A stretch of 36,130 nt of DNA, from NCBI GenBank assembly GCA_018334795.1, contig JAGXLH010000001.1:1-36130 (forward strand), read 5' to 3'. The notes beneath the pieces are model-generated. The model had not been told where the DNA came from. It ran no database searches and saw only the letters and a list, made by a program, of their open reading frames with translations. Both the position numbers and the translations under genes were made by a program. Below, piece after piece: positions 683-26,750 of the stretch; the stretch's first letter is position 1; the number at the start of each line of letters is the position of its first letter. This DNA comes from Thermoplasmatota archaeon. Lineage in GTDB: Archaea > Thermoplasmatota > E2 > DHVEG-1.

Positions 683-3600
683 TTATTCAACAAAAATTCC
701 TAGTCCTACCCCCGCAAACACTGGTGAATTCTTTCCTGCAATGCCAAAAAATAATTGCGCTGAACCAGACTGAAAACCCATTTTTCTAAAGACTCCATTA
801 GTTCCTGCTGATGCAGAAAAACCATCTTCAAAGTTCCATTGCAATTTACCTAAATGAAGACATGACGGTAATCGTTCAGTGATTACAGAAGAGGGAACGG
901 ATTCAACAACTGCATTTGACTGCCCTATCCCAATGATGATCCCTAATCCGTTAGTAAAACCACCAGATGACTCCCAATTAGTAATATACACCCATTTCTC
1001 GTCAATCCAACTTTGACCAGATTCATCAAAAGCTTGTGCTCGAATCATGACATTTACTCCAGTTAATCCAAGAGATGACCTGCTCCCATCTCCTTGTTCT
1101 ACATCACAATACCATTCATATGGAGGGTCAGTATCGACAAATGGAAGACCTTCTCGTTCTCCAAACGGTTCAATATCAAATTCAACCCGATCAATGCCAA
1201 CATTATCAGTTGGTTCTGCTTTCACCCAAAATGGTGTTTCAACTTGTTCTTCATTTGCTGGAGAAGATATTTGCACATATGGTAAATCTGCATCAATTTT
1301 TATCACTCGTTTATTTTCTGAATCATAACGACTTTCAATGTTACCATTACGATCCTTTGCCCAAAACACGACTTCCCATTCACCCATCCACTTAGATGAT
1401 TTAGATGTGCTCAACTGCAGTCCATTCTCGGCATTATACACTTGTTGGTCTCTACCATTCAAACTATAATAAATCGATTCTATACCACTTCCGGTATCCT
1501 TCGGAAAATCCTCTGCGTGTAACCAAAGAATAACACTTTCACTAATGTACCATTCATTCAATCCTTGAACTCCTTCAATATCTTCTACGGTTGTTTCAGG
1601 AGGTTCATTATCTTCGCCAACATACATCACACGCCAGGAATCCAAAAAGGGTGAAGAGGACGGATTATTTCGATGAAAGGTTGCCTTCAAACGGATGGAA
1701 GACGTAAGGATACTTCCAATATTTGCTCCAGAGGACACATCAGCCATGAGAATCTCCGTAGGATTCTTTCCATGAACAATATCAAAAGAGATATCTCCTT
1801 GCTTGGTTGCTTCAAACATATGCCAAGAATTTAGGTTTGATGGAGAAATAGGATCAGAAACAATATGGCTATTTAACACGAGACTATGTTCCCCGCTTGT
1901 ATTATAATAAATCTCTGAACAACCCGGTGTATTAAATGACCAAATATTCGTGTAAATATCGGGTAGATCTAATCCATCATACGGACTTGGATACTCAACG
2001 CGAAGATCCTCCCAAGCAACAAAAATGTGATCACCACTAGATGCAATATTTGCCCAATCAGCTGGATCAGATTCAGAATCACTAATCTGAAGGACATATG
2101 GATTAACGCTTCCTTCTGAATTGATAAGTTTTCCCCAGATGTCTCCACCACCATCATAAACAACGAAAAAAGATGAACTTAGATGAGGGACAATATTGGT
2201 TCGTTCAAAAGCTCCATTTGCGATTTTGAACGTGTCAACAGCCGCATTTCCATTTTCATCAAGGATTTTACCCCATATATGTCCATACCATTCTCCGCTA
2301 CTGATATCATCTTCCTGCCAGGTAATCAAAAACCGTTCGGTTAGCCTACAAAATGCAACACAGGGAAAATTATAATCTACAGTTGATGACCCTTGAGGAG
2401 AAATAAGAATTGCATCTCCTAATGGATCACCATTCGTGGTGAACAGCTGACCCCATATGTCAAATGGTCCATTTTCTGCGTTGACACCTTCCTCCCAAAC
2501 GATCATAAAATGATTATTCACATCATCAAAGGTCATCCATGGTTCACACTGGTTATTTGGTGCATCAGAAATGATTTTTTCAGAGCCAATAGGATTCCCC
2601 TCAATATCAAAGAATTTACCATATAAATTATAATTACTTGTTCCCTCTCTTCCATCTTCCCATACCACAAAGAAACGCTGATTCTCATCATCATACGCTA
2701 CCACAGGATCAGCTTGATTTCCAGAAGAAATGCAAATATCAAAATGAGTTACATCATAGATGGTACTTGCATCGGTAGCAACCAATGCTCCCTTAATATC
2801 TCGACTAACTGGATCGGAAGGAGTGTTATAATATTCATAGGCAACAAAAAAAATGTCTGTGTCTCCATCGGAACCATATGCAGAGGAGGGATTTTCACAT
2901 CGAAACGGAGTAGTGGGATCAGTATTCCATTCAGTGATATCAAATCGTTCACCTATTGGTTCACCCTCTTCTGAATAAAAACAACCACGGATTTGTTGTT
3001 TATAAATCATTCCTAATGGAATATACCGCGGAATACCTTCTTCCCAAGTTACAAAAAACTTGTTATCTCCCCAAATCACATCAGGATCCCATGCCCCTTC
3101 ATTTTCCATATGATAGGAGATTTTATGATCGTGGGCATAATAGTTTTGCCAACTATTTTCATCAAATACTGACCAGTAATCACTTCCATCAGTGGCATCT
3201 GGATTTCCATAAAACACACTAACATTGCTTTCTCCTTCAGGTAAAGAAGCAATTCGAATCCAAACGATTGCATATGGCTCATTTGATTGTGGATTTTTTT
3301 CCTCTATCCAATAAGGTAGCCAGTAATCATCATTATTAAATTTAAACCTGAGATCACCATAATCTGATCGCATATCACTATCATATTCCACAATCAATTT
3401 AACCAGGGCATCATCAAGCGCAATTTCACTTGAAAGTGTAACTATTTTCATTTGAGTCCATTCCGCATTAGTCCATTGTGGAAATGTTGCATACATTACT
3501 GCTTTTCCATCCTGAACGAGGAAATGATCTGAATTATTTTCATCAATGTATTGTGCATTATCAAACGAATCCTCCCAAGTATAATAATTATTATCACCGG

Positions 3601-3748
3601 GCAGTGGAAGTGACTGATCAAGAATATTACTCATCCGATTATCGCTATTTGTTGAAATCGAAATCGTTTGCATCATCGAACAAATCAATAAAAACAGAAC
3701 GATACTTGAAATCACTTGCAAACCATGTTTTCTCTTTAAATTATTCAT
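683..3748 (-). CDS. Large secreted/surface protein (1021 aa): signal anchor, DUF2341-like beta-sandwich, seven ~55-aa FxVxWxD repeats (propeller-like), Ig-like domains, Gly-rich hydrophobic C-terminus
   Basis: ORF track 683..3826. I prefer the internal ATG at 3746-3748 (MNNLKRKHGLQVISSIVLFLLICSMM, signal-like) because the longer start overlaps the upstream gene, whose stop is at 3750-3752. DUF2341-type motif DLRFKFNNDDYWLPYWIEE...YAIVWIRIASLPEGESNVSVFYGNPDA. Repeats: FFVTWEEG, FFVAYEYY, FFVVWEDG, FMIVWEEG, FLITWQED, FFVVYDGG, IFVAWEDL. Ig-like segment PFWVKAEPTDNVGIDRVEFDIE. Confidence 0.8.
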   Translation of the reverse strand: MNNLKRKHGLQVISSIVLFLLICSMMQTISISTNSDNRMSNILDQSLPLPGDNNYYTWEDSFDNAQYIDENNSDHFLVQDGKAVMYATFPQWTNAEWTQMKIVTLSSEIALDDALVKLIVEYDSDMRSDYGDLRFKFNNDDYWLPYWIEEKNPQSNEPYAIVWIRIASLPEGESNVSVFYGNPDATDGSDYWSVFDENSWQNYYAHDHKISYHMENEGAWDPDVIWGDNKFFVTWEEGIPRYIPLGMIYKQQIRGCFYSEEGEPIGERFDITEWNTDPTTPFRCENPSSAYGSDGDTDIFFVAYEYYNTPSDPVSRDIKGALVATDASTIYDVTHFDICISSGNQADPVVAYDDENQRFFVVWEDGREGTSNYNLYGKFFDIEGNPIGSEKIISDAPNNQCEPWMTFDDVNNHFMIVWEEGVNAENGPFDIWGQLFTTNGDPLGDAILISPQGSSTVDYNFPCVAFCRLTERFLITWQEDDISSGEWYGHIWGKILDENGNAAVDTFKIANGAFERTNIVPHLSSSFFVVYDGGGDIWGKLINSEGSVNPYVLQISDSESDPADWANIASSGDHIFVAWEDLRVEYPSPYDGLDLPDIYTNIWSFNTPGCSEIYYNTSGEHSLVLNSHIVSDPISPSNLNSWHMFEATKQGDISFDIVHGKNPTEILMADVSSGANIGSILTSSIRLKATFHRNNPSSSPFLDSWRVMYVGEDNEPPETTVEDIEGVQGLNEWYISESVILWLHAEDFPKDTGSGIESIYYSLNGRDQQVYNAENGLQLSTSKSSKWMGEWEVVFWAKDRNGNIESRYDSENKRVIKIDADLPYVQISSPANEEQVETPFWVKAEPTDNVGIDRVEFDIEPFGEREGLPFVDTDPPYEWYCDVEQGDGSRSSLGLTGVNVMIRAQAFDESGQSWIDEKWVYITNWESSGGFTNGLGIIIGIGQSNAVVESVPSSVITERLPSCLHLGKLQWNFEDGFSASAGTNGVFRKMGFQSGSAQLFFGIAGKNSPVFAGVGLGIFVE

Positions 3749-11838: not shown

Positions 11839-12059
11839 AAACTCTTTAAACAACCAATTTTTTTGGATGATAAAAAGTAACATAAAAAGTAACCTAAACA
11901 AACATCGAAAAATAATTTTTCATACCTAATAAGAAGAAAAACGAATTTAAGAGCATAAAAAGATCTGCATATACTAATTTTTTCCAAAAATAACATATTC
12001 ATAAAATGTTAAACAATATAAAAATCATCCAAAAATCACTAAACGGTGAAAATTAGGAT

Positions 12060-12289
12060 GGTTTGACAGCGTACCAAGAACAACTGAGTTTCAAGCAGTG
12101 AAGTTTACCTCAAAAAACTCCCGAAGGAGTAAATCAAGGCTCTCCACCTAGCTCAGAGGTTCCAGCCCCCTCAGGGGGGTAATCTTCCCATGGGCTCTCG
12201 CACCATAGTAACGAGGATTACGCAGGTAAGCTTAACTGCCGGGTTCGAGATGAGACCGGGTGTTTCCTTACCGCTTTGGCCGTCAAACC
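12060..12289 (-). rRNA. rrf: 5S rRNA, oversized (~230 nt) with a 108-nt internal insertion (12071-12178)
   Basis: Minus strand reads GGTTTGACGGCCAAAGCGGTAAGGAAACACCCGGTCTCATCTCGAACCCGGCAGTTAAGCTTACCTGCGTAATCCTCGTTACTATGGTGCGAGAGCCCATGGGAAGATTAC, covering canonical helices I(5')-II-III-IV-V with the conserved CCCGGTCTCAT.TCGAACCCGG.AGTTAAG core. The only sequence able to close helix I (GCTGTCAAACC, pairing with GGTTTGACGGC over 11 bp including one G.U) lies 108 nt further on. Confidence 0.8.
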
Positions 12290-12337
12290 ACCTCATATGA
12301 ACTAAATTAAATTGCAACCATAACCTGTCTAACGATT

Positions 12338-23525: not shown

Positions 23526-26750
<3,225 letters not shown>

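Follow-up and report, generated by a model that had tools for sequence, protein, structure and literature searches.

An rRNA operon of an uncultured Thermoplasmatota archaeon ends in a 5S rRNA gene of 230 nt (12060–12289, minus strand), into which a structured segment of 108 nt is built. The gene lies in a 36,130-nt stretch of DNA (assembly GCA_018334795.1, contig JAGXLH010000001.1), the whole of which is called the window herein. [quoted passage not shown] That selection maintains the insert as a structured part of the 5S gene can be regarded as close to certain, given its covariation and its conservation. [quoted passage not shown]

The operon runs in the order 16S (17088–15620), tRNA-Ala (15495–15424), 23S (15265–12337), and 5S, and the same order, with the 5S in last position, is common to the relatives. 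Rfam detected a single 5S match in the whole 36-kb window. Outside the rRNA genes, the GC content of the window is about 30–40%. The preliminary description of this DNA had taken its host for an AT-rich archaeon that is not a haloarchaeon, and the host lineage is indeed the Thermoprofundales/MBG-D, within the Thermoplasmata. As for the surroundings of the operon, the proteins of three nearby genes were looked up by exact match. Two had no database record, and the third was found in Great Salt Lake sequencing runs and in the MAG GCA_018335115.1, on a contig that is interrupted at the rRNA operon.

The first 111 positions of the gene (12179–12289) form the canonical 5S core, comprising the 5′ strand of helix I, loop A, helices II and III, loop C, and helices IV and V. 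The core pairings noted earlier, GUAAUC/GAUUAC and CUAUGG/CCAUGG, are all present on the minus strand. In the Rfam scan of the window, RF00001 matched positions 12287–12168 with 75.5 bits, against a gathering score of 38, and loop C, loop E, and helices II–V were recognized above threshold, as befits a 5S rRNA. It had been anticipated that this alignment would be split by the insert. The core match was obtained, but the alignment is contiguous and closes with a defective proximal helix I, in which three of the nine pairs are non-standard in the window. A helix I made from the 5′ and 3′ termini is found solely with the distal strand: GGUUUGACGGC, at the 5′ end (12279–12289), pairs at 11 of 11 positions with its complement GCUGUCAAACC (12070–12060), which is the true 3′ end of the gene. 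This distal helix, with its one G·U and its partner 108 nt downstream, is as it had first been proposed. In the MFE fold of the 230 nt, the distal strand closes the 5S core, and the insert is folded as a short hairpin and a long arm; its energy is −93.3 kcal/mol (z = −4.6), and none of 200 shuffles folded equally well. When folded alone, the insert gave a z of −2.9. Despite the insert, all the canonical helices I–V and loops A–E of the core are kept.

Besides the boundaries first drawn for the segment (12071–12178), limits of 12075–12182 are equally valid, and the strict Halococcus register would be 12076–12183. This ambiguity of 4–5 nt arises because the 5′ strand of helix V has two possible partners, the UUAC that precedes the insert and the GUAC (or GUGC) that follows it. 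The post-insert strand, GGUAC in the window (12071–12075) and GGUGC in most relatives, can pair with GUAAU (12217–12221) to make up the lower helix V. The segment is composed of two arms. The short arm (12166–12179) is a hairpin of 4–5 G-C pairs, whose tetraloop is CUGA in the window and GCAA, GUAA, UUCG, or UUAA in relatives. The long arm (12077–12163) is unbranched and is built, in order, of a basal stem, an asymmetric internal loop, a G·U-rich middle stem, an upper stem, and a distal hairpin. Here, its upper part reads as a 7-bp stem, a 2 × 2 loop, a 6-bp stem, and the UUCG loop. The three helices pointed out in the preliminary description (CCCCC-UGA-GGGGG, ACUCC-UUCG-GGAGU, and CUGAG…CUCAG) are all present. 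Across the carriers described below, the segment measures 105–108 nt, with a short arm of 14 nt and a long arm of 87 nt. An expansion has been defined as an addition of at least 13 nt to the conserved core that is internally paired and leaves the core intact (PMC7812874), and the window gene fits this definition with 108 nt and 35 internal pairs.

Among 50 distinct sequences, the invariant or near-invariant blocks of the insert are CUAGGUGGAGAGC, the UUCGG tetraloop, and GUAA-CU-CACUG-UUGAAA. The 3′ side of the internal loop, GCUUGAAA (12089–12096), which stands opposite CUA at 12149–12151, is itself nearly invariant, since all its positions are invariant or at least 90% conserved in these sequences, with the exception of one C-or-U position below 90%. 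This GCUUGAAA/CUA loop is a candidate ligand or tertiary-contact site. When it was inspected by eye for K-turn or tetraloop-receptor identity, no defensible match was seen. The distal hairpin (12116–12131) ends in the tetraloop C(UUCG)G, whose loop occupies 12122–12125; the UUCGG core is invariant, and the closing C is kept in at least 90% of the sequences. Searching positions 12040–12200 against the families of Rfam 15 gave no match to the insert, even at E ≤ 10, and the insert contains neither terminal repeats nor an ORF.

To find carriers, one genome per GTDB species was scanned with a 23-mer from loop C. At least 119 loci were returned, most of them irrelevant because this 23-mer is also typical of Chloroflexota 5S. 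In at least 12 archaeal MAGs, one of them cut by the contig end, the partner of helix I lies 229–230 nt downstream and not at about 120, and at least 11 further complete expanded 5S genes, besides that of the window, came from GTDB species genomes. With one anchor in the core directly ahead of the insert and another in the distal helix I strand, we also found 51 metagenome (JGI) contigs with the same architecture, representing 47 distinct sequences. The same anchors separated by a gap of 2–9 nt, as expected of an insert-less junction at the DNA level, be it an allele or a spliced copy, were found in none of the metagenome contigs. In every locus containing the 23S, the expanded 5S is the sole 5S of the operon, and no second 5S contig from any carrier MAG was present among the matches listed. 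Copies of the insert occur exactly once per locus and only in the 5S, and none was found elsewhere in 1.1 Mb of sequence. Searching PLSDB with the 230 nt returned matches to the 5S core alone, on bacterial and haloarchaeal plasmids, with none to the insert and none from Halococcus.

Among the carriers, SM1-50 and 3300003432D have been published as Thermoprofundales (MBG-D) MAGs (PMC6461988). Ordinary 5S genes of about 125 nt were found in the other Thermoplasmata of the scan (L011, L025, L046, L092, and Methanomethylophilus). The 16S of the window is 98% identical to that of one metagenome contig and 91–92% identical to that of members of the main carrier clade, which includes UBA346. With identities to the window 16S ranging from 98% down to 91%, the trait spans a deep lineage. 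In the window and in all the relatives examined, Rfam cuts the gene to about 120 nt and assigns a wrong 3′ end; the scores in relatives were 73.9–75.3 bits.

The 12 complete genome sequences, window included, align over 230 columns with a single gap, and the 47 distinct metagenome sequences likewise preserve the unit with hardly any gaps. For the analysis of covariation, 50 distinct sequences with 12-nt flanks were aligned (alignment A2), and pairs were counted in an explicit canonical structure, which was adopted because RNAalifold, when run on the full alignment, wrongly joined parts of helices II and V to the 3′ linker. Standard pairs made up 95–96% of the cells. Changes on both sides were counted at 31–32 pairs (212–213 cells), and none of 500 shuffles reached the observed values. 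By contrast, when the partner was slid by 1–3 columns, only 34–47% of the cells were paired and 6–14 pairs had double changes. Within the insert, 22 of the 35 pairs show compensatory double changes, distributed over the short arm (three of four pairs), the basal stem (eight of 11), the middle stem (two of seven), and the upper and distal stems (nine of 13). For example, alignment columns 127/134 of the short arm, a helix that is 99% paired, hold C-G in 33 sequences and U-A in 16, and the stem of the distal hairpin covaries at columns 173–176/183–186.

Conservation points in the same direction. Mean pairwise identity among the 50 relatives is 93% in the 5S core and 65–68% in the 12-nt flanks, while within the insert it reaches 90% at unpaired positions and 76% at paired ones. 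Loops more conserved than stems, between flanks of low identity, indicate a functional RNA and not a spacer. The proposal that these nucleotides are a folded expansion segment is thereby borne out, and the covariation that was to be looked for in related genomes and MAGs is strong.

Retention of the segment in the mature 5S is probable, in view of the conservation of the insert loops and the analogy with Halococcus. An intron is nevertheless a serious rival, because precise removal of 12071–12178 would leave a normal 5S of 122 nt, in which helix V (GUAAUC/GAUUAC) directly abuts helix I, as in a textbook 5S. The 108 nt would then be an intervening sequence removed after transcription, either by endonuclease and ligase splicing, yielding a 5S of about 122 nt, or by cutting without ligation, yielding two pieces held together by helix I. 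Introns occur in archaeal rRNA genes, and group I introns are present in the 23S of close relatives, which shows that interruptions of rRNA genes are tolerated in this lineage. However, the layout of helix, bulge, helix, bulge, and helix expected for archaeal splicing is missing at the boundaries, which do not pair with each other and have a hairpin arm between them. A simple scan of the window sequence for the bulge-helix-bulge (BHB) motif, in which a 4-bp helix separates two 3-nt bulges, gave no candidate whose flanking helices each reached three pairs, and none that could coexist with the fold supported by covariation. Such a motif had been named beforehand as the sign of excision. Also at odds with removal, the interior loops of the insert are 90% identical among lineages whose 23S are about 87% identical, which is unexpected for a discarded spacer. 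No intron or ribozyme family of Rfam matched at E ≤ 10, and no insert-free allele was present among the metagenome contigs (0 vs. 51). Finally, the structurally equivalent insert of Halococcus stays in the mature 5S (PMC7530397). We therefore regard excision as unlikely.

According to another explanation, the mature 5S would be the Rfam match of about 120 nt (12287–12168), and the next 110 nt would be a 3′ trailer containing a processing stem and a hairpin followed by T6 (12130–12112). In its favour, all 120 positions of the Rfam model align to 12287–12168, and ACUCCUUCGGGAGU followed by UUUUUU fits a terminator-like pattern. The T6 run lies inside the insert at 12112–12117, directly after the UUCG hairpin, and belongs to the window's own clade. 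But although the hairpin is conserved, an internal run of five or more T is absent in 47 of 56 loci, where the longest run is of at most four, and the distal hairpin with T6 was for this reason rejected as an intrinsic terminator. T5 runs also occur within the 16S and 23S of the window operon. The first run of at least five T past the distal 3′ end is found 10–61 nt beyond it in 53 of 56 loci. In the window, two T5 runs at 12020–12035 are the likely archaeal transcription stop. The gene is thus the distal one of its operon with a terminator downstream, as expected of a 5S.

The pairing of the termini also stands against the short form. The proximal helix I of the Rfam alignment is paired in 65.6% of the cells, compared with up to 67% in shifted controls. 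It shows no covariation, and at two of its nine positions pairing never occurs. An alternative helix I at this place, which would have counted against the long gene, is thus no better than chance displacement. Helix I with the distal strand, in turn, is paired in 100% of the 50 sequences. Covariation is not seen in this helix because its strands are nearly invariant, the GGUUUGACGGC strand being invariant and always perfectly complementary to the distal one. Beyond it, the 3′ trailer (12052–12059) pairs with the 5′ leader (12290–12297) and extends helix I in the precursor. Columns 11/246 of this helix are G-C in 38 sequences, A-U in nine, and G-U in three, and columns 5/252 show six double changes. 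Since leader and trailer covary just outside the 230 nt, the precursor helix brackets the long form, and not one of 120 nt. A mature 5S ending near 12168 is accordingly very improbable.

MAG rRNA regions are prone to misassembly. A third explanation would make the locus a pseudogene, a chimera of the assembly, or a 5S broken up by a mobile element, and the oversized 5S pseudogenes of some bacteria lend it some precedent (PMC7812874). It is effectively refuted by the recurrence of the same structure in more than 60 independent assemblies from many projects, by an intact core under purifying selection in what is the operon's single 5S wherever the locus includes a 23S, and by an insert that is present a single time in each locus and absent from the rest of the 1.1 Mb, with no terminal repeats or ORF.

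For the expanded gene preferred here, two placements of the segment relative to helix V were compared. In model A, helix V is continuous and the insert is located at the loop-A junction itself; in model B, the lower part of helix V is built with the post-insert strand, and the insert splits helix V 4–5 bp above loop A. Pairing amounts to 93% of the cells under model B and 86% under model A. In L134, an A to G change that is compensated by U to C favours model B, and a U to C change in three sequences breaks model A only. On these sequence comparisons, model B appears slightly better supported. The preliminary description had proposed that the three-way junction of loop A becomes a four-way one. 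Since the segment has two arms, placing it at loop A would instead produce a five-way junction; the alternative, an insert within helix V, would produce a separate four-way junction, as in Halococcus.

The halobacterial 5S rRNA expansion segment was reportedly described by Luehrsen et al. in 1981. In the survey of Stepanov and Fox, archaeal expanded 5S rRNAs were confined to the Halobacteria, namely Halococcus, Halalkalicoccus, Halomarina, and Halodesulfurarchaeum (PMC7812874). The halobacterial insert has 108 nt and is flanked by core positions 104.1 and 105; it interrupts the 3′ strand of helix V on the stretch from loop E to the three-way junction (PMC7812874). Its two arms, one a short hairpin and the other long and unbranched, give it the shape of an “asymmetric V” (PMC7812874). 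In H. morrhuae, the 108-nt insert is part of the mature 5S, and cryo-EM revealed a four-way junction with the core intact (PMC7530397). Full-text literature searches retrieved no report of an archaeal expanded 5S outside the Halobacteria, and the Thermoprofundales genome paper does not mention the 5S (PMC6461988). The cases in uncultured lineages were likely missed earlier because the survey used RefSeq genomes and curated 5S databases. The suspicion that the window gene was an unreported instance holds in so far as the archaeal cases retrieved are halobacterial alone, but the trait is not that of one genome, being lineage-wide.

We compared the Thermoprofundales segment with the halobacterial sequences deposited by Stepanov and Fox (bioRxiv supplement). 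The site is the same to within 4–5 nt, and under model B the position is homologous. The sizes are alike (108 nt there, 105–108 nt here), and both have the asymmetric V, with a hairpin of 4–5 G-C pairs often capped by GCAA and an unbranched arm of 87 nt. In both, 5 nt separate GGGAA from the short arm, an asymmetric internal loop of 3 nt and 8–9 nt follows the basal stem, and the return strand is GGU(U/G/A)C, which in Halobacteria is GGUUC and in Halococcus forms the lower helix V. The halobacterial short arm is CCUC-GCAA-GAGG, and one Thermoprofundales MAG (L082) has CCUCGCAAGAGGG, identical to that of Halococcus. In Halobacteria, as here, the core is untouched, and the segment is carried by every clade member examined. 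The differences concern the hosts, sediment Thermoplasmatota of about 34% GC as against Halobacteria of about 65%; the distal domain, which has UUCG-capped stems here and a conserved GUACACGCAGGGUCCGUCCCGGUGGAA element in Halobacteria; and the kind of evidence, presence in mature ribosomes being experimental for the halobacterial insert, while the Thermoprofundales segment is known from DNA.

In sequence, the two segments could not be related. Global alignment of the Thermoprofundales and halobacterial inserts gave z ≤ 1.9 against shuffles. The halobacterial covariance model returned no match with default filters and, with filters off, scored 4.1 bits on the insert (E = 4.5), which was no better than noise in the 23S. 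A nhmmer profile of the Thermoprofundales insert detected no halobacterial insert above shuffled decoys. Hence, the segment has the site and layout of the Halococcus segment, but these searches give no support for membership in its sequence family. The shared site, near-equal length, two arms, GCAA cap, 87-nt arm with a 3-nt/8-nt loop, and GGUKC return strand nevertheless suggest, tentatively, that both could go back to one RNA module, shared through common inheritance or an inter-phylum transfer, whose sequences have diverged beyond recognition. We consider this possible but doubtful.

Other rRNA expansions share some of these properties. The bacterial 5S expansions (Thermoanaerobacterium, Desulfotomaculum and relatives, Halanaerobiales, and Pseudoalteromonas) are likewise self-folding helical modules on an intact core and, as here, were overlooked by standard annotation, but their sites (helix III bulge, loop C, and helix IV) differ from that of the Thermoprofundales (PMC7812874). 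In addition, they usually exist beside normal 5S copies, are patchy by strain, and are often linked to pseudogenes (PMC7812874), whereas the Thermoprofundales insert is fixed across up to 9% 16S difference in an apparently single rRNA operon. Archaeal BHB and group I rRNA introns also add sequence to rRNA genes, and their precise removal restores a normal RNA (PMC6125680); unlike them, the Thermoprofundales insert has no BHB motif, no Rfam signature, and no presence/absence polymorphism, and its loops show rRNA-like conservation. The LSU rRNA expansions of eukaryotes and Asgard archaea grow by the same “accretion,” in which a helical module extends outward via a new junction and the parent helix is barely changed (PMC7594248). 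They are, however, long, variable, and of low complexity and belong to the 23S/28S (PMC7594248), while the segment described here is a small, sequence-conserved part of the 5S.

In sum, a segment of about 105–108 nt interrupts the 3′ strand of helix V, either at the loop-A junction or 4–5 bp above it, and folds independently into a short tetraloop hairpin and an unbranched, UUCG-tipped arm of 87 nt. The gene would be transcribed last in the 16S-tRNAAla-23S-5S operon, and the leader–trailer helix around the 230 nt probably guides the maturation of its ends. Like its Halococcus counterpart, the retained segment would project from the central protuberance into the solvent, and at this equivalent site it would not be expected to disturb ribosome function. 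Its near-invariant loops may most plausibly serve as the docking site for a lineage-specific protein or as an rRNA contact; our best guess for its function is that of a docking module, exposed to the solvent, on the central protuberance.

With this finding, large archaeal 5S expansions, once believed confined to a few halophile genera, reach a globally abundant, uncultured sediment lineage, an entire lineage that appears to make ribosomes with a double-length 5S. It offers a second case in which rRNA has grown by accretion at this permissive site, either independent of the first or very anciently related to it, and with two examples one may ask whether site and shape are set by ribosome geometry or by a shared function. 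There is also an annotation blind spot, as Rfam-based pipelines miscall the 3′ end in these genomes and report a gene of 120 nt. The segment is a lineage marker and a possible probe or pulldown handle for MBG-D ribosomes in environmental samples. If the Thermoprofundales and halobacterial segments were indeed the same module, it would be a functional add-on of the central protuberance, for instance a docking site for a dedicated factor, and would mark out as specialised the ribosomes of an archaeal group that ranks among the most abundant in sediments worldwide.

The Rfam 5S model returned a full-length match of 120 nt in every carrier of the ~230-nt 5S rRNA examined, among them the window (12168–12287) and the related loci L164 (4338–4457), L109 (569–688), and L143 (1824–1943). 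In these carriers, the 120-nt match was achieved by imposing a poor helix I on the short-arm hairpin of the expansion segment. Automated annotation therefore assigns a wrong 3′ end to the 5S gene and conceals the expansion.

Two pairs of positions in the 5S core varied across the alignment of 50 distinct expanded sequences. In helix II of the main clade, 5S positions 17/67 (alignment columns 29/79) form a conserved C·A mismatch, present in 32 of the 50 sequences; the pair is C-G in the window's clade and U-A in SM1-50. Positions 72/79 (columns 84/91) covary between C-G and A-U, a pattern compatible with an alternative local hairpin, GUAC...GUAC, competing with helix V; the covariation may reflect such an alternative conformer or a coincidence. 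Among the matches listed (loci L005–L122), the loop-C/helix-III 23-mer used in the genome scan, CATCTCGAACCCGGCAGTTAAGC, is shared exactly by Thermoplasmata 5S and many 5S genes of Chloroflexota (Anaerolineae, Caldilineae). In one Anaerolineae locus (L059), unrelated sequence replaces the first ~35 nt of the 5S, and in locus L112 the 5S is present as two tandem copies.

In several relatives (among them L164:3071–3280), the 23S gene is interrupted at sites where that of the window is uninterrupted. A 260-nt insert in L164, at window-23S position ~1986, matched the Rfam Group I intron model RF00028 (74.6 bits, E = 1.7e-17), and at the same site L143 carries ~700 nt (2939–3636) enclosing a 159-aa ORF (3041–3520, minus strand) with the LAGLIDADG-type motif GFVDGEGCF. 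Interruptions were also found in L154 (~1944–2213) and in L109 (~2516–2748), the latter with ~230 additional nt around position 1150–1170. Group I introns have previously been reported in archaeal rRNA genes (PMC6125680). The window itself has an intein-containing DNA gyrase B gene (23526–26750, plus strand; counterpart at L001:6997–10215), and precomputed domain matches for the corresponding MAG gene place Pfam Intein_splicing between the DNA_gyraseB and Toprim domains.

Within the expansion segment, a T6 run lies immediately 3′ of the UUCG hairpin (12112–12117, minus strand). Internal runs of five to six Ts occurred in only 9 of the 56 loci, and those inspected belong to the window's own clade, in which the T6 run after the hairpin could cause partial premature termination by the archaeal RNA polymerase.
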